Shown here in pieces: positions 8,440 to 64,000 of a DNA stretch of 64,000 bases. The notes under the pieces were generated by a model, which saw only the letters and a list, made by a program, of their open reading frames with translations, was not told the origin of the DNA and did no database searches. The translations under genes and the position numbers were made by a program. This stretch comes from Eledone cirrhosa (taxonomy: Eukaryota), in assembly GCA_964016885.1 (NCBI GenBank), contig OZ024741.1, positions 87,420,001 through 87,484,000 of the forward strand. Direction: 5' to 3'. Positions within the stretch are counted from its first letter, which is position 1, and each line of letters opens with the position of its first letter.

Positions 8440-8779
8440 AAATTAGTAAAAACAATGAATAAAAAGACAGCATATATATGTGTAGGTATGTATATTCCCT
8501 CTGATAGTTTGTAAAATTTTTACATAGATCTATATGATATACATACCAATACACACATATATATCCTAGAAACGATCGTAAAACGATGATTTTTTTTTAA
8601 TATAAGGAACTGTTTCTTTGTTTTTATTCATTGTTTTTATTAATTTATCTTGACTCTGTTTTCCTGTGATTTTCATCGAAAAAAAAAATGTTGAATACAC
8701 CTTCTCTTTTCATGATATTTGGATTACATTGAGTTCTTCATACGGATTGGACACTACCGTATATTTTGGTAGATTTATC

Positions 8780-8782
<3 letters not shown>
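8440..8782 (+). mobile_element. Non-autonomous (TA)n-embedded element, homologous to 46740-47283, with short 5' inversion and truncated HHR
   Basis: Clear similarity to the reverse complement of 46740-47070. 8440-8465 is the reverse complement of ~8620-8645. Flanked by (TA)n. Confidence 0.8.
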
Positions 8783-8822
<40 letters not shown>

Positions 8823-8829
<7 letters not shown>

Positions 8830-9248
8830 TTCAAAATATTAACAAAAATAGACATTCGTGTGATCAAGTATATTTTATTATACATATTTCAGAGGTACTG
8901 AGCTATCTTCAACAGTACGTCCTCATCAGATAAAATAAGATAATGCATGACATACCCTGACTTAGTAGATGGTTAAGATTCAGTCATGGTAGACTGAATC
9001 TTAACCATCTACTAAGTCAGGGTATGTCATGCATTATCTTATTTTATCTGATGAGGACGTACTGTTGAAGATAGCTCAGTACCTCTGAAATATGTATAAT
9101 AAAATATACTTGATCACACGAATGTCTATTTTTGTTAATATTTAGAATTAATATTAATAACTCTGGAAAACCAAAACTGTTGAGTGCTTCCAATCTATTG
9201 TAAAACTCATTCTTTGATTTATTCATTGAACATTGTTTAACCTTTAAA
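8823..9248 (+). mobile_element. Fold-back non-autonomous element: 163-bp inverted arms (8823-8985 / 8992-9154) plus 3' tail ending in (TA)n
   Basis: Near-perfect palindrome (1 mismatch seen) around the loop atggta; flanked by (TA)n on both sides. Confidence 0.9.
9040..9106 (+). ncRNA. Type I hammerhead ribozyme (mirror copy on - strand at 8871-8937)
   Basis: Stem I tattttat/ataaaata, CTGATGA, stem II ggacgtactg/cagtacctct, GAAA, minimal stem III atatgtat, AUA cleavage triplet. Confidence 0.8.
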
Positions 9249-15107: not shown

Positions 15108-15330
15108 GTTCCTTGAGTCTCAAACATTGATGTTATTTAACTGGAAAGTTTGTTGAAATGAATATCAAGCCGCTACCTGCAGCCTCAGATATTCAGGACG
15201 TATTACTGTTCCCAGCAAGCATGCTTTTTGAAGTGTTCCCAAAAGCGGGGCTGGACTAATCTTCTTTAACCAACCTTGGAAACTCTTTCATATAGTACCT
15301 AGTAAGCCTATGAAAATCGGGACGATCTTT
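15108..15330 (-). mobile_element. Short 3'-end copy of the same R4/Dong-like family
   Basis: Highly similar to 13697-13930, with a small internal deletion; bounded by (TTA)n on both sides. Confidence 0.85.
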
Positions 15331-15346
15331 TATTATTATTATTATT

Positions 15347-17098
15347 ACAGTTGCATTTATCTTGCTTTATGTTCATACGAGTTATCACCAAGTCACAGCC
15401 AGTGACCACAAGAGACAACAAGGTCCGCCATGTTCAAGAAAGAACATATTCACACATGCATCTTTAGTGTTTAGACTTGTGATGTACTTATATTGACAGA
15501 ATCTTCCTTAGTATATGGGCAGTTCCCATTAGTACTATCTTTTGTATTTCTCCTATACGCGGGTTTCCTGAGATTTGCGATAAGTAGTCATTAGACCCCT
15601 TAGGTATCATTCCCAGAGCGCCTACAACCACTGGTATTGTTTTAGTTCTCAATTTCCACATTTTTCCAATTTCTATCTCCAGGTCCTTATACTTGCTCAA
15701 TTTTTCAAATGTTTTTATAGATACATTCTTGTCTATTGGAACAGACATATCAATTAGCAGGCATACCCTCTTTTGAAAGTCCTTCAATATTATATCAGGT
15801 CTATTTGCATCTATTTTTCGGTCTGTTTGGATGCTAAAGTTCCACAAGATTGAGATGTGATCTTTTTCAAGTATGGGAGGTGGTTGATGCTCCCACCAAT
15901 TCTTTTGATGGGGCAGGTCAAAATGCTTACACATTATCCAATGTATGTATTGTGCAACTCTGTCATGCCTGTTTAGGTATTCGGTTGGAGCTATAGGACT
16001 GCACATTGAAATTATATGGTCAATGGTCTCTGGTTGTTTTTTGCATACACGGCATAATGGGCTGCACCCATTTTTTATTATGTTGGCTTGGTAATTTTTT
16101 GTTGGCAGACACTGATCTTGTGCCGATATAATCAGTCCTTCAGTCTCCGATTTCAGTCCAGAGGATGCCAACCACTGATGGGTTAAAGTTTTGTCAACAT
16201 CAGGATTGTTAGCTCGCTCTGGGTATTTTCCATACAGAGGCTTTTCTTGCCATTTCTTAGCCAGTTTCTGTAGCAGTTCTTTCTTTGCAGTTACTTTTAC
16301 CTGCTTTGCTTTTTCTGTGTTTTCCATTTCAGCAGTAAATGGGACTTCTGAAATTTGTAGTCCATTACTGTATCTTTGTGCATCTTTTGTAATGGAATAT
16401 GATCTTTTGATGCTTTCGTGTTTCAAAACGAGTTTGATCATCCAATCATGTGATTCCCTTAGATATGTAGATAATCCAATTGTTGCAGTTTTCAACGCAA
16501 TGTCTAAGTGGATTAACCCACGTCCTCCTTCTTTCCTAGGGAGATATATTCTATCTATATCTGCCTTAGGGTGATGCATTCTGTGCATGGTTAAGAGTTT
16601 TCGAATTTTTGTATCGAGCCTACGGATCTCTGTGCTTGACCAGTTGATGACATTGTAACTGTAGGTTACTACTGGTATGGCAAGCGTGTTTATGGCATCG
16701 ATCCTATTCCTTGCATTCAATTCCGTTCTTAAGATTGCTCTTACTCTGCGGTAACATTCCTTCCTTATCCTTTCCCTCATTGTCGAGTGCTTGATTCCGT
16801 CTCCTTCACAAACACCTAGATATTTGTAAGTTTTTTCTTGATCAAGTTCTCTTATCACGTTCCCCCGATCAAGATTAATGTCTGAACTCTTCAGCAGCTC
16901 TGGTGAACGTTGCTTTGGCGCATTTATCTAGTCCAAACTCCATTTTAATGTCATCACTGAACTGCTTCACAGTGGATAATAGCCCTTGCAATTGTTCATC
17001 ATTTTTTGCAAATAGTTTCAGGTCATCCATGTAGAACAGGTGATTAATGGTTTTGTCATAGACTTTATATCCATGTTTTGTTTCATTGAGCATTTTAC
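15347..17098 (-). mobile_element. 5'-truncated R4/Dong-like non-LTR retrotransposon with long open C-terminal ORF (15488..16858, 456 aa)
   Basis: YMDDLKL, YKYLG, GGRGL, CRVC...ETIDHIISMC zinc knuckle, RHD and RPDIIL...D...K..KY RLE motifs; flanked by (TTA)n at both ends. Confidence 0.92.
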
Positions 17099-17165
<67 letters not shown>

Positions 17166-40017: not shown

Positions 40018-42427
40018 ATATTGTTATACTTGGGGCGGGTCACATTCTGTAATATTGCCAGAATTAATAACAGAACACACTCACTGTTTGGTTGGTTTTC
40101 GCTTTTCACTTCTGTGTCTTTTATATCGGTAATCTAATTTATTCGGTCCTCAATGTTGCCATTGACTGACCGACGGTCAAAAATAATACAGATACAATAT
40201 AGACACAAACACATATATATAGTTTATCAAAGTTCTTTCGTTGCACATCTGCAACATCGTCAGTGGTGCTATTGTTTCCTCCCGTTACATTGTATGTCTA
40301 CGCCATTTTTATTTAGTCTGTCTATATATTTATTTATTTATTTATTTGTTTGTTTGTTTATTTTATTTTGTCTTCTTTGCGCATGCATTTGCGTGTGTAT
40401 AGTGTTTTGTTTGATGTGTGTTCGTGATTGGGTGACTAGTGTGTGTTTATATGTGTTTGTTGTTATTGTGCTTGTGTATGTATTTATTTACTTATCTATT
40501 TATTTATTTATTTATTTATACTTCTCTTAGATCAGTGTTGTTTGTTTGGGTGTTGTTGTTATTTCATTCATTCTTTCTGTTTAGTCTTGGCCTTCTAAGT
40601 AATATAGCTAGCAACTACAGGATCTCCTACTTCCTCTCAATGGTTATACGCCCCAAAATCAAGATGTCCCCAGATGTATGTGACAGTACAGAGGACCTCC
40701 TCAGCAGAATCAGTGAGTGCAACAAAAACAGGAACCTATCCAACTGCATAATAGGCAGCATGGATGTGGTATCACTGTACCCATCCATTAACATTGATTT
40801 TGCTGTGGAAAAATGTGTGGAGATGATCATTGAGAGTGAGGTGGAGTTCTGCGACGTCGACACAGACGAACTGGGCCTCCTACTTAGACTTACCTACGAC
40901 ACTGACTACCTAGACAGCCATGACCTTAGACGTTTCTGCCCTAGTAGACCCATAAGAGGTAGACCCCCCACCATAACCTCAATGGCAAAAAGACTCCCAT
41001 GGAAGGTGGATTGGGTGAACCAAAGCTATACGGACCCCCCAAAACAATGATCAGGTAAGAAAAATGGTCGCACATGCAATAGGGGCTAGTATCAAAACTA
41101 CCCTAAAGGGCCACATATTCAAGTTCAACGAGAAGATCTACACCCAAAATGAGGGAGCAGCCATTGGCGTCAGCATAGCTGGTGATGTTGCCAACCTTTT
41201 CATGGTATGGTGGGAAAGGAGACTTAAAGATCTCCTTAATGAGAGCTCCATAGACCTCATCATGTACTCTCGTTACGTACACGATATCAATATAGTTATA
41301 AGAACATCCCCACTAGAGAGCACTAACAAGTTTGATTTAGAACGTAGCACAATGGAAAGCATCCAGCAGATAGCTAATTCCATACACCAGATTATAACTG
41401 TAACTATCGACCTCCCTTCCAAACACCCTAACAATAGACTACCTGTATTAGACGCGGAACTCTGGATTAACACTATAGACGAGAGAGCCCAAATTCTCCA
41501 CTCACACTATGCTAAATCCATGGCCTCCAAATACCTGATACTCAAAAACTCAGCAATGTCCAGTAGTGCTAATTTTAATATTCTGATCGCAGATTTGGTA
41601 CGAGTGATGAAGAATGTGTCCCGCATGTGCGACCCAACAAAAATGGAAAGACACATCCAACACTTCATCAACCGCATGCAGTTCTCTGGCTACAACCAAA
41701 GAGACAGAGTCAGAGTATACGAAGGAGCCATGGAAAAGTAAAAGACCCTCATAGAATCGGACATGAAAGAAATTTGCCCATTATACAGGAGCAAATCATG
41801 GAATAGCTTAGATAGGGCTAGACATAAGATAGGGAAAGCCACCTCATGGTACGACAACCAGAGATACCAGAGTGTCATGTTTGTGGACGCTACCCCTGGA
41901 GGGAAATTAGCGAACCAGTGTAGAAAGGACCTGAGAAAGACCCACTTAAAGATTAAGGTGGTAGAAAAGCCAGGAACCACCATAAAATCCCTGATCAGCA
42001 AAACCTACCCTTTAAGAAAACCCACTGTACTAATAGGAAATGTATCATATGTAAGGTAAACCCCCGGATAAACTGTAAAACTAGAAACGTAGTCTATAGC
42101 ATAAGATGTACAGAGGGTACTTGCAGAAACATGACAACAACATACATAGGTGAGACAGCTCGTAGCATAGGTGAAAGGATAGACCAACACTGGGGGAAAC
42201 TAAACGGACGAAAAAACGGGTCAGTACTATACGAACATGCCAGACAACAACATGACGGTAACATAGACAACATAGAAATTAGAATAATATCTAAACATAG
42301 AAATGACCCAGCAGATAGGCAAATCGGAGAGGCCAGTGAAATAGAACTTAGAAGGCCAAGACTAAACAGAAAGAATGAATGGAATAACAACAACACCCAA
42401 ACAAACAACACTGACCTAAGAGAAGTA

Positions 42428-42458
<31 letters not shown>

Positions 42459-42954
42459 ATAGATAAATAAATAAATAGATAAATAAATAAATACATACAC
42501 AAGCACAATAACAACAAACACATATAAACACACACTAGTCACCCAATCACGAACACACATCAAACAAAACACTATACACACACGCAAACGCATGCGCAAA
42601 GAAGACAAAATAAAATAAACAAACAAACAAATAAATAAATAAATATATAGACAGACTAAATAAAAATGGCGTAGACATACAATGTAACGGGAGGAAACAA
42701 TAGCACCACTGACGATGTTGCAGATGTGCAACGAAAGAACTTTGATAAACTATATATATGTGTTTGTGTCTATATTGTATCTGTATTATTTTTTACCATC
42801 GGTCAGTCAATGGCAACATTGAGGACCGAGTAAGTTAGATTACCGATATAAAAGACACAGAAGCGAAAAGCGAAAACCAACCAAACAGTGAGTGTGTTCT
42901 GTTATTAATTCTGGCAATATTACACAAATATGACCCTCCCCAAGTATAACAATA
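40018..42954 (+). mobile_element. 5'-truncated Penelope-like element (RT plus GIY-YIG) with inverted pLTR (40018-40600 vs 42345-42954)
   Basis: SMDVVSLYPSI, EGAAIG..AGDVANLFM, YSRYVHDI, LPVLD, YIGETARSIGER motifs across frameshifted ORFs; ends abut TA-rich tracts. Confidence 0.92.
42705..42746 (+). ncRNA. Minimal hammerhead ribozyme in Penelope pLTR (mirror on - strand at 40226-40267)
   Basis: CTGACGA-t-gttgca gatg tgcaac-GAAA-g aa c-TT; weak stem I. Confidence 0.65.
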
Positions 42955-43093
42955 TATATATATATGGGTATATATTAATATTTTTAAACGGCAGTGAAGT
43001 GTAATTATTTCAGGATAATTCTGTAATTTAATAGCCCTTTACCAACTAAATTCGAAAATTAACTTCCAGCATTTTACTTTATTATTTCTACAT

Positions 43094-45176: not shown

Positions 45177-46281
45177 TTGGGTTGAGTCATAAATAATTTT
45201 CGTTTTAGTAAAATAATTTATGCTTGAATAATTTACCAATGAATTCATTTCAATCAATAGTATATTTGTCATTATTTTGAATCACTTTATTCCATTCATC
45301 AAGTAATTTGTTGATTCCTCTCAAGTAAAACCAGCTGATTTCGAGCTCAAGAAATTTTCCACAAACGTTTTCACCTGAACTTCTTGAGAAAAGTTTTTGC
45401 CATTCAGAGCATTTTGTAGAGAACAAAAAAGACGTAAATCAGTTGGTGCAAGGTCTGGTGAATATGGTGGATGGGATAAAACAGACCAGCCTAAATCCAA
45501 TATTTTCCTGTGTGATTATTGCTGAATGTGGCTTTGCGCTATCATGGAGAAGCACAACGTTTTTTCAATTGACGAATGGGGAGCGTTTTCTTAGAAGATT
45601 TTCATGCACACGTTGCAGCTGTTGAGTGTATAAGTCTGCATTGTGTATCTGATTGCAGTTTCAAAACTCAAAATGGATAATACCGCGGTTATCCTACCAT
45701 ACACAGGGATATGCGATCTTCCTTATTCTTCTCACTTAGAGTATGAGGAACCCTAACGCCCAGCCTGCTCACTTCTCCTATCTTATCCAAATGGCGGCAG
45801 GTTGTGGATTGGGATGTGTTGAGGTCAGGTGCTAATTCTTGAGTATCTTTGTGCAGATTGCATCCCAGCATTTCTCTAAAAGCATCTTGATTGACGTCTG
45901 ATGAGCATCCTGGTCTGAGTTCATCTCCCAATGACGTACCCCCAGAAAGAAATTTTGAAAACCAGTTTCTGACTTGGCGGTCAGTAATGACACATTGGCC
46001 ATAAACACTGCACATTTTCTTAGCTGTTTCTGTAGCGTTTTTGTTATTCTTAAACTCCCACAACATTACGTGTCGAATATTCACTTTCAGTTCCTCCATT
46101 TTAGGAGCGGGAAATAATAGATTAAATTATGATGCGCAGTCTTTCACTAATGAAATAAGAATAACTGATGAAGATTCTCTCTAATCAGATAATTTCTGAT
46201 TGCTTTTAAAATATTGGAAGTTTGAAATGTGGAGTTACATCTTGCTTTTACAAAATGGAAATTATTTATGACTCAAACCAA
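45177..46281 (-). mobile_element. Decayed mariner DNA transposon with TIRs and internally deleted transposase
   Basis: TIRs ttgggttgagtcataaataattt / aaattatttatgactcaaaccaa; HTH N-terminus (45689..46099), RVPHTL (WVPHEL-like) and YSPDLAPTD motifs; TA context. Confidence 0.92.
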
Positions 46282-46660
46282 CATACATTAAAACATATTA
46301 CCAAACACTGTTAATGATATCATCAGTTAATTTAAATATGTTTCATCCTAATAGGACTCGTCGGAATTAAATAAGATATAGATACCTCAACAGATTGATC
46401 TCGTCTAACAACAAAGCATACCAGAAAACGTTTTGTTTACATTTTAATAACGCACTGTCATAATAGGAAATAGTCCTTAACATACGTATCATGACAAGTA
46501 TTTCACATTGGCACTCATACGTTAAAAAAGTATTATAATCATGAGCAATGTTTCTGTTTGCAATAGATACTAAGTTCATCCAGAGAAATTCATACATCTA
46601 CACACACACATATCTATATAAATGCACACACACCTATACACACCTATATACACCTATATA

Positions 46661-46739
<79 letters not shown>

Positions 46740-46742
<3 letters not shown>

Positions 46743-47274
46743 GATAAATCTACCAAGAGTTTACGGTAGTGTCCAATCCGTATGAAGAACTCAATGTATT
46801 CCGGATATCATGGAAAGAAGAGATGTAATGAAAATCCACTTTCGGTGAAAGATAAACGGTATACAGAGTCAAGATAAAATATTAAACAAATAATGAAGAA
46901 ACAATTCCTTATATTAAACAAAAAAAGTTCACTATTTAACGATCGTTTCTAGGGTATATATGTGTTATAATTGGTATGCATATTCAACAGATCTATGTAC
47001 AAAATTATACAAAATTATACAAATTATCAAGATTAAATATACATACCTAACACATATATACGCCGTCTTCAGAAATAATTATTTCTGAAGACGGCGTATA
47101 TATGTGTTAGGTATGTATATTTAATCTTGATAATTTGTATAATTTTGTATAATTTTGTACATAGATCTGTTGAATATGCATACCAATTATAACACATATA
47201 TACCCTAGAAACGATCGTTAAATAGTGAACTTTTTTTGTTTAATATAAGGAATTGTTTGTTCATTATTTGTTTA

Positions 47275-47283
<9 letters not shown>
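46740..47283 (-). mobile_element. Fold-back non-autonomous element with a spacer-less ~410-bp palindrome (46874-47283), in (TA)n
   Basis: Centre cagaaataa|ttatttctg at 47078/47079; homolog at 8440-8782; missing from the mirrored arm. Confidence 0.9.
47078..47226 (+). ncRNA. Type I hammerhead ribozyme with ~116-nt stem II domain (mirror on - strand at 46931-47079)
   Basis: Stem I attattt/aaatagt, CTGAAGA, stem II cggcgtatatatgtgtt/aacacatatatacccta, GAAA, palindromic acgatcgt, GUU triplet. Confidence 0.72.
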
Positions 47284-47356
<73 letters not shown>

Positions 47357-47359
<3 letters not shown>

Positions 47360-47487
47360 TTATTAGAAGATTCACTAACTCAACTAATCTGTCATGTTCT
47401 TATTAAATTTGATAATCTATATACATCTACTTATATATATATATGTATATATTGGCTGACATATGCGTGTGTATATATATATATATA

Positions 47488-47554
<67 letters not shown>

Positions 47555-47664
47555 GCATATGTCAGCCAATATATACATATATATATATAAGTAGATGTAT
47601 ATAGATTATCAAATTTAATAAGAACATGACAGATTAGTTGAGTTAGTGAATCTTCTAATAACTG
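47357..47664. repeat. Palindrome with ~115-bp arms around a (TA)n centre (mirror at 63500-63821)
   Basis: cagttattagaag...catatgcgtgt (TA)n acacgcatatg...cttctaataactg. Confidence 0.9.
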
Positions 47665-47907
47665 TTACCCCAGAATCGGAACTCATACTATAGCAATTAT
47701 TTAGGAAAAAGAAATCGAAGTTTGTAGCTCCCCCAAACTCTACTTACATAATCACATTCACACCCACACACACAGATCCATACACACATGCACATACTAT
47801 AATATAACCAAGTATATATTATGTGTGTGCATACACGCACATGTAGATGTGTATGTGTAACTACTATTGTATAAGTCTACCAATTACTACTACCCGAACT
47901 AATTAAT

Positions 47908-48005
47908 TAATTGTTTCTACGTTAGGCACAAGGCCAGAAATTACCCAGTGCATTACTGGTACTTTATTTTATCGACCCCGTAAGGATGAAAGGCAAAGTC
48001 AACCA
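47908..48005 (-). mobile_element. 5'-truncated SINE family A with 17-bp TSD (mirror at ~63159-63256, +)
   Basis: cgaactaattaattaat at 47895-47911 and 48006-48022. Confidence 0.92.
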
Positions 48006-48340
48006 CGAACTAATTAATTAATAGTGAACAAGAAGTTTTAGGTTATATATGAAAAGACAATCAAACATTTACAAGAGTTACCTCCCTCACATCCTACCTA
48101 ATCCTTTTTCTTAAATAAATTAAATATCATCCACCAAGAATTGCTTCCTCCTGCATATTAACTCTCTAAAAAGGGAAATCATATCAAACCTCAGTCCACC
48201 ATTTGCCTCCATAATGGATTCATGGATCAACTAAGCACCCTTGCTATATTAACACATTTTGATCTGCTTAACTTCAAGAACTATGCCTGTAAATAAAATT
48301 TTTTCTTCCACATTGATTTTTATGCTCTACATTATGCCCG

Positions 48341-48348
48341 TTTTCTTT

Positions 48349-48379
<31 letters not shown>

Positions 48380-48612
48380 CTTTTTTCTTTTTTCTTTTTT
48401 CTTTTTTCTTTTTTCTTTTTTCTTTTTTCTTTTTTCTTTTTTCTTTTTTCTTTTTTTCTTTTTTTCTTTTTTCTTTTTTTTTCTTCTTTTTTTTTCTTTT
48501 TTTTTTCTTTTTTCTTTTTTCTTTTTTCTTTTTTCTTTTTCTTTTTCTTTTTCTTTTTTCTTTTTTCTTTTTTCTTTTTTCTTTTTTCTTTTTCTTTTTT
48601 CTTTTTTCTTTT
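48341..48612. repeat. (TTTTTTC)n polypyrimidine tract (mirror (GAAAAAA)n at ~62533-62823)
   Basis: Seen directly in the sequence. Confidence 0.95.
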
Positions 48613-48927
48613 CACTTCATAAACCTTGTTTGTAAATAACATTATTCTTTCTGCACCTTCTCTTTAACATATGTGACACCACACTAATACATTTCACTAT
48701 CATTTGATAATGCATAAAAATGTTGAAACTGGTAATAGACAATTATTAAATATATAAATAGATAAATAAATGCCATTGTTAAATAATAAATAAATCAACT
48801 AATACCTTAACACTTCACACAAAGTAAAACATTTCATTTAATCATTTCCTAACACAGAAAAAAGAGAGAGAGAAACAAAAAAGAAAAGAAAAATATTTTT
48901 TTTCCTAATAATCGTCTCTTTCTCTGT

Positions 48928-48973
<46 letters not shown>

Positions 48974-49105
48974 GTGGGGTTTTTTTTTACAAAATGAAAA
49001 ATAACCGAGGTGTCCTACACGAGTGGAAGTATAAAGAAAAAGAGATGAAATCGAAAATGCAACTGAAGTCTTATTGAAAAACCACAGACCCTCCATCTCA
49101 ACTCA

Positions 49106-49143
49106 CCTTTTGAAAAGCAGAAGAACTGCGAAACCGGTAAAGG
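49106..49143 (+). ncRNA. Minimal hammerhead ribozyme with compensatory U3-A8 core (mirror on - strand at 61932-61969)
   Basis: cctt-TTGAAAA-gcag aagaa ctgc-GAAA-ccgg-TA-aagg; all stems pair. It lies between ~45-bp inverted repeats 49031-49075/49175-49219. Confidence 0.7.
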
Positions 49144-49212
49144 AACCAAATAAATATATATATTTTTTTAAAAAATAAGACTTCAGTTGCATTTTCGATT
49201 TCATCTCTTTTT

Positions 49213-49250
<38 letters not shown>

Positions 49251-50591
49251 ATACCAGATTAATCTGGCATTTTAATAAATATTTAATATGGTATTTTAAT
49301 AAATATTTGCTCTACGGTTCTTATATATCTGATATATATTTATCCTTATCGAGCCCTCTTTGGATTTTAGTCTTCAAATTTTTTATTATATATATATATA
49401 TATATATAAATATTAAGTTAAATTAAATTAAATTAACTGAGTTAATAAGGATATTTATATTTATATGTTTTAGAATGGGAAGATACGGAAAAACTCCAGT
49501 TTAATTTATTTATTCGTTAGTATGAGACTATTTAGTCAAAATAAGTATAGATGTTGAAAGATATGTTTAGCCAGAATCAGTTAGTGGTTATAAATCTATT
49601 AAAAATATTGAAAAAATATTAAAAATTTGAGAAAATTAAAAAAATAATAATTTATAAGAGATAAGTAATTTTTAAAGAAATAAAAATTAAAGAAATAAAA
49701 ATAAAGAATTAAAATTTATTTAAATTAAAATTACAATTAAAAATTTTTAAAAATTAGAATTATATACGTATATATTTTATGAAACATTAAGAAGTGGAAT
49801 TATAGCAAATATTATAGATATTATGATTTAGAGATATCAATATATTAAAACCAAGAGGATAGGATTGTTATGGAAATAAGTAGAAATATTATAAGAATAA
49901 TTATAATTTATATATAGTTCTGAATGTTGAATTCAAGCGATGTCTACAAGAATTAAATAAATTCGTTCTTAGATTAATAGAGTTCTTACATTTAAGTATG
50001 AAAAGAATCTGGACTATTCATTAGCTTGGGAAACAGTTTCATAAGCACCCGCGTGCTTTATCTAGATTCTGCAAATTGTGTGTTGAGGAAATTTTTTTCA
50101 TACTTAAATGTAAGAACTCCTTTAATCTAAGAACGAATTTATTTAATTCTGGTAGAATTATCTATAACATGGTATACCCATCTATTTATTTATTTATTTA
50201 TTTATTTATCTACTTAAAACAGAAAATATTATATTATAAACGAATTTTAAACAACTAAAAATCCTAAATACACGTACTATTAAGGTATATACTTAGAATA
50301 TATTTCCCCCAAATTAACGTTATATGAGTTTTATTCATCTTCTCCTGTTTATTTATTCTCTATCTCTCTCTCGTACTGTTTTTATCCTTCTCCACTTATC
50401 TTTTCTCTCTCTCTCCCTCCCTCTCTCCATAGTTGTTTAAATAAACCGTTGTTTTTCAATTATTTACATATTCATTTGCATATTCACACATAAGTTTGAA
50501 TAATCCCTAATATATTTCCACTATCCAGTGAATTTACAACCGATAAGGTATGATTTTCATGGGTACGTCTCTATTTATAAGACAAACTTTG

Positions 50592-50656
50592 TATTTTATC
50601 TAAATGAAAGCGTACCAATGTTTTCTTGGTACCCTTGAAATATATATAATAAAATA
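50592..50656 (+). ncRNA. Hammerhead fold homologous to 9040-9106, with mutated core (mirror on - strand at 60408-60472)
   Basis: tattttat-ctaaatga-aagcgtaccaa/ttggtaccctt-GAAA-tatata-TA-ataaaata. Confidence 0.65.
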
Positions 50657-50790
50657 AATATGGTTTTATAAATATAGTTTCCATTTATTAAATATCATTG
50701 AATATTTACTCCAGTAAACTGTTGAGTGCTCTAAATCAGTTATAAACATTTATATTTGTCGGGCTTTCAACAAATTAAATACCCCTTCTA

Positions 50791-50831
<41 letters not shown>

Positions 50832-50833
<2 letters not shown>

Positions 50834-51037
50834 CGAAGGAAATGTGGTAAGGAACCAGATGGACCTTAACGCACCAAAGTACTCAATACTTAGGGTAGTA
50901 GAGTGGGTAATAGGAACGAGTAGGACATCGACGGCTGAGCTCAAGCCGTTTCGACCGGTAATTCTGGACCAATTCTAGACCGTCCAGAATTAGCCGTCGA
51001 AAAGGCTTGAGCTAGAGCCGTCGGGGTCCTACTCGTT

Positions 51038-51042
<5 letters not shown>
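50832..51042 (-). repeat. (TA)n-flanked element with a GC-rich ~130-bp rod-like hairpin (50910-51042); mirror at 59992-60202
   Basis: aggaacgagtaggac..cgacggct..agctcaagcc.tttcgac...taattctggac and its reverse complement, with small internal loops. Confidence 0.85.
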
Positions 51043-51079
<37 letters not shown>

Positions 51080-51206
51080 TGTGTGTCTGTATTTTTATAG
51101 ATATGCATGTGTGTAGTGTAGAGGTATGCATTTGTACATTTTGACATTTATCTAGAGATACCTAATATCTATTTCAAAAAAGAAACATATATATATATAT
51201 ATGAGT

Positions 51207-51274
<68 letters not shown>

Positions 51275-51878
51275 AAATAACAGGAGGCTGGACTGGTGTA
51301 AAACCTTGAAAGGTTTATTATACTATCATCATTTCAATGATCGGGTTCCATATGAATCCGGTGATATCATCAGGTATTGGAATATAACAAAGGAATATGT
51401 AAAAAACCATGGGTCCGAAAAATCAGAGACAAAGAGGGCGACTGACCAACTAGCTTCTCGGCCAGCCGCCCTCAGAGTGTTGGCAACAGAATCTACTAAT
51501 GAATATCTGGTGAGGGTGCGAAGGCTTATAATGCACTACCACCACTCCATCAAAGAAGAAGGGAAAGAAAGAAAGGGAGAAAGAAGTGTAATGTAAGGGT
51601 CATACTACATTCATGCTAGAAAATGCCGCGAAAAAATGCTACCCCATAGAATCTATAATGGGTGTCTGTATGGTCTAATGTGTGAACCGAAGATTGGAAC
51701 GTTAAACTTATGTTGCGAGTTATAGGATGAAATTAAGTTAAATTAAAAATATACACAAACGAAGATGGGTGAACTGCACTGCGTTGAGTTCTCTTCACAA
51801 TATTACACCAGGATTGACCATACGGAATGACCTGTTCTATCCAGTGGTGAACCAACAAACCTATATATATATATATTT

Positions 51879-51955
<77 letters not shown>

Positions 51956-52096
51956 GTGTGTGTTTGTGTGTGTACAAATGCATACCTCTACACTACACGT
52001 GTGTAGTGTAGAGGTATGCATTTGTACATTTTGACATTTATCTGGAGATACCTAATATCTATTTCAATAAAGAAACATATATATAAATATATGAGT

Positions 52097-52148
<52 letters not shown>

Positions 52149-52360
52149 CGTTTCTGAATTTGTTTAGCAAGATTCTTTATCTGAAAACGTGTGTTGAAAC
52201 CGATATTGTTATACTTTGGGAGGGTCATGTTGCCAATAAGAAACACACGCACCAGTTGCTTTCAATTCAATTTATTATAATAAATTTATAAATTTAGGAA
52301 TTTATAAATTTCCGGTTGGTTGGTTGGTTGGTTCCACAATCAGATGATTGTTTATATATT

Positions 52361-52403
52361 GTCAAAGTTCTTTCGTCACACATTCTGTGACCTCTTCAGT
52401 GAC
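52361..52403 (-). ncRNA. Minimal hammerhead ribozyme in pLTR (intact core); core-mutated copies at 54364-54406 and 58657-58699 (+)
   Basis: gtca-CTGAAGA-g-gtcaca gaatg tgtgac-GAAA-g aa c-TT-tgac. Confidence 0.78.
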
Positions 52404-54533
52404 TGGGGATTCTTTTCTTTGTTTTCGTGCCTCTCCTTTGTTCTGTCCTACGCCATCTTGTTTTTGTGTGTGTTGTGTGCTTAGTTTACGCATGTGTTAC
52501 ATCCGGGTGTCTGTGTGTGTTTATATTTGTTTATTTACATGTTACTGGTTGGTTGTTTGTTCTATGTGCGTGTGTGTTTTCATTTTGTCCTTAATTGTAA
52601 GTTGTGATGTTGCTGTTCCATTCATGTTTTCTATTTAATTTTGGTTGGAGTTCATTTATGTTTATTGCCTCTGTGATTTGTCTAAACATTGCATCTTTTA
52701 TGTGTGTAGATTATATTTTTATTTCTATGTTCTCTAATTTACCCTTATGTTCTATTTTAGCATGTTGGAAGAGTACAGATGATTCTTTACTATCTTGAAG
52801 GGCTCGCCAGTGTTCATTTATCCGTTCCCCTATACTACGAGCTGTCTCACCTATGTACACTATATTCTTATCTCTACATTGTCCTTCAGTACATCTTATG
52901 CTATATACTACATTTCTAGTTTTACAGTTAATATGGGGGCTTAATTTACAGATTATACATTTCTTATCTATACAGGGAGGTCTTTGAAAAGGGTATGTAT
53001 TGCTAATAAGTGTTTTTATGGAGGTACCTGGTCTTTCTACTATCTTAATATTGAGTTTATGTTTATCTAGGGCCCTTCTAAATTTGTAAGCTAATTCACC
53101 TCTAGGGGTTGTATCGATGAACATTACACTCTGGTATTTATTGCTATTATACCATGAGTTTATTCTATTAACTTTATTCCTAGTTCTTTCTATTCTATTC
53201 CAAAATTTGCTCCTATAGAAGGGGCAGGTCCCATTTGTGTCATTATTTACCATTTTTTCCCATTTGGTTGTGGCTCCTCTATATACTCTGATTTTATCTC
53301 TCTGATTGTAACCAGAGAACTGAATACGGTGGATGAAGTGGTGTATGTGTCTCTCTAGTTCTTTGGGGTTGCACGTGCGGGACACGTTTCTCATCACACG
53401 TACCAAATCCGCAATCAGTATGTTGATTTTGGTATGGTCCGAAATGGTTACAATCAGAGAGATAAAATCAAAGTATATAGAGGAGCCACAAACAAATGGG
53501 AAAAAATGGTAAATAATGACACAAATGGGACCTGCCCCTTGTATAGGAGCAAATTTTGGAATAGAATAGAAATAACTAGGAATAAGGTTAATAGAATAAA
53601 CTCATGGTATGATAGCAATAAATACCAGAGTGTAATGTTCATCCATACAACCCCTAGGGGTGAATTAGCTTACAAATTTAGAAGAGCCCTAGATAAACAT
53701 AAACTCAATATTAAGATAGTAGAAAGACCAGGTACCTCCATAAAAACACTTATTAACAATACATACCCTTTTCAAAGACCTCCCTGTATAGATAAGAAAT
53801 GTATAATCTGTAAATTAAGCCCCCATATTAACTGTAAAACTAGAAACGTAGTATATAGCATAAGATGTACTGAAGGACAATGTAGAGATAAGAATATAGT
53901 GTACATAGGTGAGACAGCTCGTAGTATAGGGGAACGGATAAATGAACACTGGCGAGCCCCTCAAGATAGTAAAGAATCATCTGTACTCCACCAACATGCT
54001 AAAATAGAACATAAGGGTAAATTAGAGAACATAGAAATAAAAATATAATCTACACACAGAAAAGACGCAATGTTTAGACAAATCACAGAGGCAATAAACA
54101 TAAATGAACTCCAACCAAAATTAAATAGAAAACATGAATGGAACAGCAACATCACAACTTACAATTAAGGACAAAATGAAAACACTCACATAGAACAAAC
54201 AACCAACCAGTAACATGTAAATAAACAAATAAATAAACAAATATAAACACACACAGACACCCGGATGTAACACATGCGCAAACTAAGCACACAACACACA
54301 CAAAAACAAGATGGCGTATGACAGAACAAAGGAGAGGCACAAAAACAAAGAAAAGAATCCCCAGTCACTAAAGCGGTCACAGAATGTGTGACGAAAGGAC
54401 TTTGACAATATATAAACAATCATCTGGTTGTGGAACCAACCAACCAACCGGAAATTTATAAATTCCTAAATTTATAAATTTATTATAATAAATTGAATTG
54501 AAAGCAACTCTGCGTGTGTTTCTTATTGGCAAC

Positions 54534-58458
<3,925 letters not shown>

Positions 58459-59065
58459 AGACAAAATGAAAACACACACGCACATAGAACAAACAACCAA
58501 CCAGTAACATGTAAATAAACAAATAAATAAACAAATATAAACACACACAGACACCCGGATGTAACACATGCGCAAACTAAGCACACAACACACACAAAAA
58601 CAAGGTGGCGTAGGACAGAAAAAAGGAGAGGTACAAAAACAAAGAAAAGAATCCCAGTCACGGAAGAGGTCACAGAATGTGTGACGAAAGAACTTTGACA
58701 ATATATAAACAATCATCTGGTTGTGGAACCAACCAACCAACCGGAAATTTATAAATTCCTAAATTTATAAATTTATTATAATAAATTGAAGTGAAAGCAA
58801 CTGGTGCGTGTGTTTCTTATTGGCAACATGACCCTCCCAAAGTATAACAATATCTGTTTCAACATACGTTTTCAGATAAAGAATCTTGCTAAACAAATTC
58901 AGAAACGAAATATATTCATATATATATATTGGAACTCATATATATATATATGTTTCTTTATTGAAATAGATATTAGGTATCTCCAGATAAATGTCAAAAT
59001 GTACAAATGCATACCTCTACGCTACTCACATGTGTAGTGTAGAGGTATGCATTTGTACACACACA

Positions 59066-59162
<97 letters not shown>

Positions 59163-59656
59163 TATATATATAGGTTTGTTGGTTCACCACTGGATAGAAC
59201 AGGTCATTCCGTATGGTCAATCCTGGTGTAATATTGTGAAGAGAACTCAACGCAGTGCAGTTCACCCATCTTCGTTTGTGTATATTTTTAATTTAACTTA
59301 ATTTCATCCTATAACTCGCAACATAAGTTTAACGTTCCAATCTTCGGTTCACACATTAGACCATACAGACACCCATTATAGATTCTATGGGGTAGCATTT
59401 TTTCGCGGCATTTTCTAGCATGAATGTAGTATGACCCTTACATTACACTTCTTTCTCCCTTTCTTTCTTTCCCTTCTTCTTTGATGGAGTGGTGGTAGTG
59501 CATTATAAGCCTTCGCACCCTCACCAGATATTCATTAGTAGATTCTGTTGCCAACACTCTGAGGGCGGCTGGCCGAGAAGCTAGTTGGTCAGTCGCCCTC
59601 TTTGTCTCTGATTTTTCGGACCCATGGTTTTTTACATATTCCTTTGTTATATTCCA

Positions 59657-59714
59657 ATACCTGATGATATCACCGGATTCATATGGAACCCGATCATTGA
59701 AATGATGATAGTAT
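59657..59714 (+). ncRNA. Degenerate hammerhead-like motif (mirror on - strand at 51320-51377)
   Basis: atac-CTGATGA...GAAA-tgatga-TA-gtat with an imperfect stem II, ~50 bp from a (TA)n end. Confidence 0.4.
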
Positions 59715-59759
59715 AATAAACCTTTCAAGGTTTTACACCAGTCCAGCCTCCTGTTATTT

Positions 59760-59827
<68 letters not shown>

Positions 59828-59954
59828 ACTCATATATATATATATATGTTTCTTTTTTGAAATAGATATTAGGTATCTCTAGATAAATGTCAAAATGTAC
59901 AAATGCATACCTCTACACTACACACATGCATATCTATAAAAATACAGACACACA

Positions 59955-59996
<42 letters not shown>

Positions 59997-60200
59997 AACG
60001 AGTAGGACCCCGACGGCTCTAGCTCAAGCCTTTTCGACGGCTAATTCTGGACGGTCTAGAATTGGTCCAGAATTACCGGTCGAAACGGCTTGAGCTCAGC
60101 CGTCGATGTCCTACTCGTTCCTATTACCCACTCTACTACCCTAAGTATTGAGTACTTTGGTGCGTTAAGGTCCATCTGGTTCCTTACCACATTTCCTTCG

Positions 60201-60273
<73 letters not shown>

Positions 60274-61816
60274 TAGAAGGGGTATTTAATTTGTTGAAAG
60301 CCCGACAAATATAAATGTTTATAACTGATTTAGAGCACTCAACAGTTTACTGGAGTAAATATTCAATGATATTTAATAAATGGAAACTATATTTATAAAA
60401 CCATATTTATTTTATTATATATATTTCAAGGGTACCAAGAAAACATTGGTACGCTTTCATTTAGATAAAATACAAAGTTTGTCTTATAAATAGAGACGTA
60501 CCCATGAAAATCATACCTTATCGGTTGTAAATTCACTGGATAGTGGAAATATATTAGGGATTATTCAAACTTATGTGTGAATATGCAAATGAATATGTAA
60601 ATAATTGAAAAACAACGGTTTATTTAAACAACTATGGAGAGAGGGAGGAAGAGAGAGAGAAAAGATAAGTGGAGAAGGATAAAAACAGTACGAGAGAGAG
60701 ATAGAGAATAAATAAACAGGAGAAGATGAATAAAACTCATATAACGTTAATTTGGGGGAAATATATTCTAAGTATATACCTTAATAGTACGTGTATTTAG
60801 GATTTTTAGTTGTTTAAAATTCGTTTATAATATAATATTTTCTGTTTTAAGTAGATAAATAAATAAATAAATAAATAAATAGATGGGTATACCATGTTAT
60901 AGATAATTCTACCAGAATTAAATAAATTCGTTCTTAGATTAAAGGAGTTCTTACATTTAAGTATGAAAAAAATTTCCTCAACACACAATTTGCAGAATCT
61001 AGATAAAGCACGCGGGTGCTTATGAAACTGTTTCCCAAGCTAATGAATAGTCCAGATTCTTTTCATACTTAAATGTAAGAACTCTATTAATCTAAGAACG
61101 AATTTATTTAATTCTTGTAGACATCGCTTGAATTCAACATTCAGAACTATATATAAATTATAATTATTCTTATAATATTTCTACTTATTTCCATAACAAT
61201 CCTATCCTCTTGGTTTTAATATATTGATATCTCTAAATCATAATATCTATAATATTTGCTATAATTCCACTTCTTAATGTTTCATAAAATATATACGTAT
61301 ATAATTCTAATTTTTAAAAATTTTAATTGTAATTTTAATTTAAATAAATTTTAATTCTTTATTTTTATTTCTTTAATTTTTATTTCTTTAAAAATTACTT
61401 ATCTCTTATAAATTATTATTTTTTTAATTTTCTCAAATTTTTAATATTTTTTCAATATTTTTAATAGATTTATAACCACTAACTGATTCTGGCTAAACAT
61501 ATCTTTCAACATCTATACTTATTTTGACTAAATAGTCTCATACTAACGAATAAATAAATTAAACTGGAGTTTTTCCGTATCTTCCCATTCTAAAACATAT
61601 AAATATAAATATCCTTATTAACTCAGTTAATTTAATTTAATTTAACTTAATATTTATATATATATATATATATATATATAATAAAAAATTTGAAGACTAA
61701 AATCCAAAGAGGGCTCGATAAGGATAAATATATATCAGATATATAAGAACCGTAGAGCAAATATTTATTAAAATACCATATTAAATATTTATTAAAATGC
61801 CAGATTAATCTGGTAT

Positions 61817-61862
<46 letters not shown>

Positions 61863-62105
61863 AAAAAGAGATGAAATCGAAAATGCAACTGAAGTCTTAT
61901 TTTTTTAAAAAATATATATATTTATTTGGTTCCTTTACCGGTTTCGCAGTTCTTCTGCTTTTCAAAAGGTGAGTTGAGATGGAGGGTCTGTGGTTTTTCA
62001 ATAAGACTTCAGTTGCATTTTCGATTTCATCTCTTTTTCTTTATACTTCCACTCGTGTAGGACACCTCGGTTATTTTTCATTTTGTAAAAAAAAACCCCA
62101 CTTTC

Positions 62106-62219
<114 letters not shown>

Positions 62220-63609
62220 ACAGAGAAAGAGACGATTATTAGGAAAAAAAATATTTTTCTTTTCTTTTTTGTTTCTCTCTCTCTTTTTTCTGTGTTAGGA
62301 AATGATTAAATGAAATGTTTTACTTTGTGTGAAGTGTTAAGGTATTAGTTGATTTATTTATTATTTAACAATGGCATTTATTTATCTATTTATATATTTA
62401 ATAATTGTCTATTACCAGTTTCAACATTTTTATGCATTATCAAATGATAGTGAAATGTATTAGTGTGGTGTCACATATGTTAAAGAGAAGGTGCAGAAAG
62501 AATAATGTTATTTACAAACAAGGTTTATGAAGTGAAAAGAAAAAAGAAAAAAGAAAAAAGAAAAAAGAAAAAAGAAAAAAGAAAAAGAAAAAAGAAAAAA
62601 GAAAAAAGAAAAAAGAAAAAAGAAAAAGAAAAAGAAAAAAGAAAAAAGAAAAAAGAAAAAAGAAAAAAAAAGAAAAAAAAAGAAAAAAAAAGAAGAAAAA
62701 AAAGAAAAAAGAAAAAAGAAAAAAAGAAAAAAGAAAAAAGAAAAAAGAAAAAAGAAAAAGAAAAAAGAAAAAAGAAAAAAGAAAGAAGAAAAAAAAATAA
62801 AGAAAAAAAAAAAAAAAAGAAAACGGGCATAATGTAGAGCATAAAAATCAATGTGGAAGAAAAAAATTTATTTACAGGCATAGTTCTTGAAGTTAAGCAG
62901 ATCAAAATGTGTTAATATAGCAAGGGTGCTTAGTTGATCCATGAATCCATTATGGAGGCAAATGGTGGACTGAGGTTTGATATGATTTCCCTTTTTAGAG
63001 AGTTAATATGCAGGAGGAAGCAATTCTTGGTGGATGATATTTAATTTATTTAAGAAAAAGGATTAGGTAGGATGTGAGGGAGGTAACTCTTGTAAATGTT
63101 TGATTGTCTTTTCATATATAACCTAAAACTTCTTGTTCACTATTAATTAATTAGTTCGTGGTTGACTTTGCCTTTCATCCTTACGGGGTCGAGAAAATAA
63201 AGTACCAGTAATGCACTGGGTAATTTCTGGCCTTGTGCCTAACGTAGAAACAATTAATTAATTAGTTCGGGTAGTAGTAATTGGTAGACTTATACAATAG
63301 TAGTTACACATACACATCTACATGTGCGTGTATGCACACACATAATATATACTTGGTTATATTATAGTATGTGCATGTGTGTATGGATCTGTGTGTGTGG
63401 GTGTGAATGTGATTATGTAAGTAGAGTTTGGGGGAGCTACAAACTTCGATTTCTTTTTCCTAAATAATTGCTATAGTATGAGTTCCGATTCTGGGGTAAC
63501 AGTTATTAGAAGATTCACTAACTCAACTAATCTGTCATGTTCTTATTAAATTTGATAATCTATATACATCTACTTATATATATATATGTATATATTGGCT
63601 GACATATGC

Positions 63610-63690
<81 letters not shown>

Positions 63691-63818
63691 TATATATATA
63701 TATATACACACGCATATGTCAGCCAATATATACATATATATATATAAGTAGATGTATATAGATTATCAAATTTAATAAGAACATGACAGATTAGTTGAGT
63801 TAGTGAATCTTCTAATAA

Positions 63819-63943
<125 letters not shown>

Positions 63944-64000
63944 TATATAGGTGTATATAGGTGTGTATAGGTGTGTGTGCATTTATATAGATATGTGTGT

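Follow-up and report, generated by a model that had tools for sequence, protein, structure and literature searches.

A probable recent insertion of a truncated Hydra-clade Penelope-like element into the (TA)n tract of one arm of a large inverted repeat in Eledone cirrhosa

Among Penelope-like elements (PLEs), the Hydra clade prefers (TA)n targets and has a member in Octopus bimaculoides, Hydra-1_Obim; its elements carry a hammerhead motif and a single ORF with a reverse transcriptase (RT) and, C-terminally, a GIY-YIG endonuclease (PMC8557442). PLE insertions are described with head-to-head arms, a tail of 30–40 nt on one arm, partial tandems and a short target duplication, of 8–10 bp in Adineta (PMC8557442, PMC3846280). 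In vitro, Poseidon of Anolis carolinensis cuts and extends both strands of an AT-rich target, with uncut RNA as the main template, from two internal RT start sites that bound the tail (PMC11167929). Animal non-LTR retrozymes are non-coding pieces with a type I hammerhead and a link to PLE end repeats (bioRxiv 10.64898/2026.07.22.740005, PMC7229834), and template-switch rearrangements seeded by inverted repeats have one junction in pre-existing inverted repeats and the other at a microhomology (PMC11293582, PMC4352052). PLE start sites sit within the end repeat (pLTR).

We analysed a window of 64,000 nt of the E. cirrhosa genome (assembly GCA_964016885.1, contig OZ024741.1, positions 87,420,001 to 87,484,000), in which one arm of a large inverted repeat holds an insert within a (TA)n tract that is uninterrupted in the other arm. 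This insert is almost certainly a piece of a young Hydra-clade PLE. Taken as a whole, the account that we favour with moderate confidence is that the young stub inserted recently into the (TA)n of one arm of an inverted duplication, itself likely real and equally young, and that the other arm represents the empty site. A filled and empty pair of a young transposon is ordinary, and mostly shows very recent movement of the family. The parts of the insert are as follows, numbered so that element position +1 is the first A of ATTATTTCTGAAGA.

46740..47283, insert of 544 nt, in which two 5'-truncated stretches of the end repeat (pLTR) of a Hydra-clade PLE meet head to head
46740..47079, minus strand, long arm, element +1 to +340; +341 to +343 (46739-46737) are common to the TA run
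46740..46873, minus strand, "tail", +207 to +340, in the long arm only
47078-47079, centre of the insert, 2 nt (AT) shared by both arms
47078..47283, plus strand, short arm, element +1 to +206; the final 3 nt (TAT) are common to the TA run

The left 338 nt of the insert were found joined to an open frame of 812 codons in a parent element, of which two units of 6,641 nt stand in tandem behind an inverted truncated copy on contig C4. The frame is open in each unit and its ATG lies at +496, so the insert (+1 to +340) is non-coding. The first-pass annotation had not identified the element, which is better described as a copy with twin arms, truncated at the 5' end and derived from a Hydra-clade Penelope-like retroelement, than as a separate class of element. 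At the parent locus (G000:C4:1528001-1548000, L034-L035) the tandem full-length units are near-identical and adjoin putative host-gene exons, with von Willebrand D-like frames as judged by motif. Searched against the genome, the left 338 nt yielded 1,585 candidates, and 38 of the 40 scored places, the window copy included, were full-length at a rounded identity of 100%. Among 30 loci examined, 13 (besides variants) were twin-arm copies like the insert, and others extended into the longer element.

The 812-codon frame has the organisation of endonuclease-bearing (EN+) PLEs, a single ORF with a PLE-type RT and a GIY-YIG endonuclease, and its motifs (DIDNYY, GSSDS, YRDD and IVYKC..YIG) are conserved in 16 aligned proteins, except for two without the C-terminal part. 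The pLTRs in partial tandem and the inverted 5'-truncated copy of the C4 locus, and the tail on one twin arm, are also those of PLEs. The Hydra-clade set of RWK-type, DKT (in place of DKG), CxCx5C, CxxC and CxH motifs without CCHH (PMC8557442) was recovered as RWR at 36-38 (RWK or RWR in 15 of 16 rows), SDKTG, CNCRNKTNC in the linker (CxCx5C), CRLC (CxxC) and CNH (CxH), without a conserved CCHH; the (TA)n target is shared as well, both at the long ends and at the short ends counted below. On these motifs, with named Hydra sequences compared by eye, we would assign the parent to the Hydra clade with little hesitation. In contrast to the size of under 3 kb given for the clade, a general and not a strict trait (PMC8557442), the unit here measures 6.64 kb, from a low-complexity 3' region of 3.7 kb, and its protein has an Asn/Lys-rich insert before the linker. 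Pfam gave no hit on the parent 812-codon protein and an RVT_1 hit in one of the two homologues scanned; in total, 103 homologues were found, 102 of them without an informative name.

Two other classes were considered and set aside. A MITE or Tc1-mariner-type foldback does not fit, since the ends are different sequences and the duplication is 15 bp and not a 2-bp TA. The second was a non-LTR retrozyme: unlike those elements (bioRxiv 10.64898/2026.07.22.740005, PMC7229834), the family has no tandem of short ribozyme monomers, its sequence runs on into a coding unit of which the stub is the literal end, and the stub centres differ copy by copy; the likeness lies in the non-coding pieces, the type I hammerhead (putative here) and the link to PLE end repeats. 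We also noted an older single-arm relative of the element at 8440-8783 of the window, which is 76% identical, lies flanked by TA runs and has a hammerhead core that has decayed; it is directly adjoined at 8823-9154 by a TA-flanked palindrome of a different family with CTGATGA...GAAA cores.

Each arm of the insert carries a hammerhead-like motif:

47078..47226, plus strand, putative type I hammerhead-like motif in the short arm
46931..47079, minus strand, mirror hammerhead-like motif in the long arm
47078-47084 with 47220-47226, helix I, 7 bp
47085-47091 (CUGAAGA) and 47208-47211 (GAAA), hammerhead-like core parts
about 47093-47206, long helix II, a hairpin of ~110 nt
minimal helix III, 2 bp, with a palindromic GAUC loop
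after 47219 (GUU), predicted cut, equal to after +142

PLE hammerheads are known with a small palindromic helix III and weak activity (PMC4209133), and helix II has 22 nt in Hydra-1_Obim versus about 110 nt here (PMC8557442). In the putative motif an extra A precedes GAAA, helix I is missing from the minimum-energy fold, and Rfam gave no match on the window, hammerhead included. The divergent relative L049 has a different helix II sequence that is yet paired, and a sister subfamily has GUA in place of GUU at the putative cut; the variants compared had been selected through the core itself. We looked for a clustering of 5' ends at the predicted cut and found none, about 88 of the 100 rows listed (from 591 matches) being the sister subfamily reading through. 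The first-pass annotation had reported a hammerhead element in the left tract that is absent from the mirrored one: the presence and absence stand, with the motif placed in the palindrome arms and not in the unpaired 134 nt. This 134-nt end lacks a CTGANGA core on either strand and its fold z-scores are weak (-1.7 to +0.6), so we rejected it as a ribozyme.

The global alignment of the two arms of the inverted repeat has a single 574-nt gap at the site, equal to the 544-nt insert plus 30 nt of TA, and gives the following layout:

46687..46739, (TA)n run of 53 nt to the left of the insert
47281..47356, (TA)n run of 76 nt to its right, including 3 nt shared with the insert
63822..63917, (TA)n of 96 nt without interruption, at the empty site
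filled site: CACC[TA11]G[TA19]T[TA53]-G46740 ... insert ... 47280-[TA76]-CAGTTATTAG
empty site, minus strand: identical flank, then [TA96] 63917-63822, then CAGTTATTAG

The filled and empty pair proposed in the first-pass annotation is thus borne out, with runs of 53 and 76 nt around the insert against one run of 96 nt at the mirrored site, and chance is ruled out because the flanks are a near-identical inverted repeat (46099-53234 / 57815-64506). The confirmation is at the level of the assembly; the public contigs X1-X3 are short and break at the TA runs, none of them spanning the site. Two corollaries drawn from the pair did not survive. It had been said to define the boundaries of the element, but 3 nt at either end are common to the insert and the TA run, so that the ends are set by the sister copies and not by the site pair; it had also been said to define the target, but a pure TA run cannot fix the duplication, for which sister copies in interrupted runs give 15 bp.

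The inverted repeat itself is organised around an older element:

46099..53234, plus strand, left arm (self-comparison and arm alignment)
57815..64000, minus strand, right arm, continuing to 64506 (G000:C2:87484506), 506 bases beyond the window
52143..58913, plus strand, PLE from a different group (RT followed by GIY-YIG), older and broken, its end repeats in inverted orientation, at the centre of the inverted repeat
45689..46200 (right edge approximate), minus strand, mariner remnant, which is intact across the left boundary at 46099, whereas the right boundary cuts it at the start codon

Outside simple repeats, the arms differ by 3 substitutions over a young part from 46102 to about 51970. 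The inner ~1.2 kb (about 52000-53234) belongs to an older PLE end repeat, ~2% from its partner, and the switch from young to old identity falls inside a 100-nt microsatellite; the young inverted duplication covers about 5.9 kb around the older PLE, which is too distant from the parent of the insert to align with it. One junction of the duplication falls within (TG)n next to old inverted repeats, and the other at a short microhomology. The right boundary cuts the mariner with a short TAAAA microhomology, and at 64506 the arm joins a cut copy of another repeat family, whose internal cut is seen in 1 of 21 rows while the other 20 continue upstream. We rejected the idea that the right flank is a new insertion in the mariner beyond which the left flank picks up again, as this other family is cut internally at the junction and there was no second copy of the left flank in the genome or within 233 kb. 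Those 233 kb contain no N.

The duplication likely stems from a template switch for which the central element's older inverted repeats served as the seed, with the switched template returning at the short microhomology observed at 64506. Such a route would resemble the inverted-repeat-seeded rearrangements in having one junction in pre-existing inverted repeats and the other at a microhomology, and differs in that the duplication here is inverted about a spacer and no triplication was observed (PMC11293582, PMC4352052). If so, the locus illustrates a way in which inverted duplications of several kilobases may be seeded by old PLE repeats in inverted orientation. Two broken PLEs of the window, at 40018-42955 and at the centre (52143-58913), are ~72% alike, each with inverted end repeats; both have RT then GIY-YIG and a CX4CxxC linker, and going by motif alone they are Neptune- or Nematis-like. 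An abundant family of palindromic repeats has two copies, at 49457-50334 and at L031:1505-2377, that are collinear over 873 nt at 93%, while distant copies match in pieces only; this pair is possibly the trace of an older local duplication. Adjoining the insertion site, a palindrome with a (TA)n centre (47356-47665 and 63499-63822) is kept in both arms.

We consider that both arms probably lie on one chromosome, as a true duplication; that they are two alleles is the less likely case, which nonetheless deserves weight. In its full form, this alternative has the arms as alleles of a structurally heterozygous locus, joined by the assembler or by unequal exchange, and the pair as a presence/absence polymorphism of a Hydra-type insertion, and we regard it as rather unlikely. 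The depth of arm contigs relative to left-flank contigs was 0.97, 1.28 and 1.07 in three runs (1.14 pooled), near flank depth, while a local two-copy palindrome reached 1.9-2.1 times; a pooled value of 1.14 counts against a homozygous duplication and is below the 1.5 expected for a heterozygous one, contig depth being a weak measure of copy number. Alleles would also be expected to differ as these arms do, in many microsatellite lengths and at 3 sites. The outer junctions were both present in public contigs, so both are physical, yet each run had one junction only, the right one in X1 and the left one in X2 and X3, again as alleles might show. Contig simplification, however, can drop one of two short branches per run, and run X3 has at 46282 a base that neither arm has, a third allele. 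The left flank is single-copy, and a second haplotype would therefore seem to need two nested rearrangements. The identity switch also speaks against an assembler's join, as a long-read misjoin would presumably need more than a 100-nt microsatellite. Runs X4 and X5, of reduced representation, had no coverage of the unique flanks, and the arm-specific bases 47971 and 48298 sit in repeats and are uninformative.

The family to which the insert belongs offers many further junctions. A count of near-identical copies, which the first-pass annotation had suggested, gave 4,659 exact long ends, 487 short ends joined to TA and 368 palindromic centres genome-wide. Our samples, taken entirely from contig C1, comprised the 60 long ends and the 40 short ends that head the respective lists; 56 of 60 (4 without a main match) and 40 of 40 were analysable, and three insertions were in both samples. 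Long ends were followed by (TA)n in 50 of 56 cases, by internal repeats in 5 and by other sequence in 1. In 20 of the 40 short-end loci an inverted partner was present that ended at +343 or +345, most of the remainder exceeding the stretch analysed, and there were no short-short pairs; at a locus outside this sample (L022) the second arm ends at +509 and not at +206. Target duplications were sought in 47 twin-arm insertions with both flanks: the two informative copies (L014 and L059), both in interrupted TA runs, have 15 bp, and two further flagged cases in periodic arrays were uninformative.

The 5' ends of the arms gather at +1. Arms started within 5 nt of +1 at 17 of 56 long-end and 15 of 40 short-end loci, and over the whole genome the departure from the template falls at +1 in 1,586 arms versus 322 at +2. 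A G stands in front of +1 in 387 of the 1,586 arms; in front of +2 it was found in 4 among the 100 matches listed, all explicable by the other arm. By eye, the extra G could not be read as sequence of the other arm in 23 of the first 50 rows, and about half of the cases could be read so. No AG precedes +1, so we dropped a splice acceptor at this position. The TTCATT context fits an initiator consensus. Untemplated G has been tied to copying of the mRNA cap in L1 (PMC9341517). In the literature searched, with most subscription papers outside the search, we found no report of a target duplication, a start site or an untemplated G for Hydra elements, and the junctions of this family give numbers for three steps called unexplained in PMC8557442: the duplication length, the two priming sites and the copying stop.

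The TA target, two fixed 3' ends, the 15-bp duplication, the hot spot at +1, the extra G and the 2-nt overlap are observed, and from them we propose the following route. The parent's GIY-YIG endonuclease would nick the (TA)n at staggered positions ~15 bp apart, as the duplication in two copies suggests; each freed target 3' end would pair by 3 nt with the sense RNA of the element, at +343 or +206. Both primed ends would then be extended to the RNA 5' end at +1, probably a capped transcription start, and the two cDNA ends would be joined via the 2-nt microhomology that is seen as overlap at the centre. We lean slightly towards priming of both target strands on sense RNA. As to the complete scheme, that the stubs record a PLE reaction in which (TA)n strands nicked 15 bp apart are primed on capped sense RNA at sites 137 nt apart, with a cap-derived G and head-to-head joining, we see the case for and against as balanced. 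If true, the inverted pLTR and tail of PLEs, for which an explanation has long been wanting, would stem from two-strand priming and not from antisense self-priming, and this Hydra family, still active and having both intact ORFs and empty sites, would be a ready test system.

The scheme would agree with the in vitro Poseidon reaction in the cutting of both strands and their extension from two internal sites bounding the tail (PMC11167929). Poseidon belongs to a different clade, with start sites inside the ORF and no strand preference, whereas the start sites here lie upstream of the ATG (+496), one per arm. The head-to-head arms, the tail on one arm, the partial tandems and the short duplication (15 bp here) follow the described PLE architecture, with a longer tail of 134-137 nt and with both arms often cut back to the same +1, giving palindromes free of ORF (PMC8557442, PMC3846280).

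For PLE junctions of the head-to-head kind, antisense self-priming had been the earlier proposal (PMC3846280), and our scheme differs from it. Under that proposal the twin arms would form by fold-back on an antisense template, which could give perfect palindromes with a 2-nt overlap shaped like the insert, such as 9 of the 50 listed centres (besides close variants). We consider it unlikely here, since the arms end at different fixed 3' points that each abut TA, their 5' ends vary independently between arms (+1 with +203, +25 with -1, +91 alone), and the extra G can precede +1 on both arms, as in L022. With an intact frame and thousands of near-identical ends in a Hydra-clade element, statistics of the junctions make the insertion mechanism testable.

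Whichever way the arms were primed, the presence of the insert in one arm only is very probably due to insertion rather than to loss, in a single event, from a family active on the time scale of the duplication. The first-pass annotation had argued for a recent insertion into (TA)n, and this gains support from the 38 places at 100% rounded identity among 40 scored candidates, from both ends coinciding with the fixed ends of the family, and from three other TA-associated palindromes (3 of 3 checked in the arm) that are kept in both arms. It had also taken the difference of about one site between palindrome arms as a sign of youth. The count is right (1 of 205 pairs in 46874-47283, at 46898/47259); the mismatched base is private to the window copy (1 genome match) and is alone no dating tool.

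Under loss, an insert older than the duplication would have vanished from the right arm when the two TA runs slipped or underwent single-strand annealing, a process that the 205-bp hairpin would have favoured; a near-perfect palindrome flanked by direct TA repeats is suited to it. The private change in 544 nt also points that way as weak evidence, the chance of at least one such change being 0.1-0.2 if insertion followed duplication. The 96-nt run fits either direction: the filled runs minus 15 bp predict a target of 114 nt, and the gap to 96 nt carries no weight, since the lengths of other TA runs differ by 4-72 nt from one arm to the other. We consider loss improbable, as it needs an extra, traceless event that also removed the unpaired 134-nt tail, while both arms have kept the three other palindromes and the duplication is matched in youth, approximately, by the youngest copies (2 mismatches in total across 13 twin-arm copies with a +206 end and a centre near +1, drawn from L001-L030, a set chosen by identity). 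Hairpins between long TA runs are hard to sequence and no read was seen spanning the site, yet an assembly collapse, with the insert in both arms and its hairpin dropped from one consensus, is scarcely credible, given that the same assembly retains 368 such palindromes and the neighbouring ones in both arms.

Beyond the window, a 2-kb inverted pair at 99.9% identity with nearby 99% repeats (L192-L193, window coordinates about 162,900-172,000) is probably another very young twin-arm insertion. Finally, a 1.8-kb LINE-like stretch of the window (15330-17101) has an inverted copy at 97.8% about 100 kb rightward (L188).
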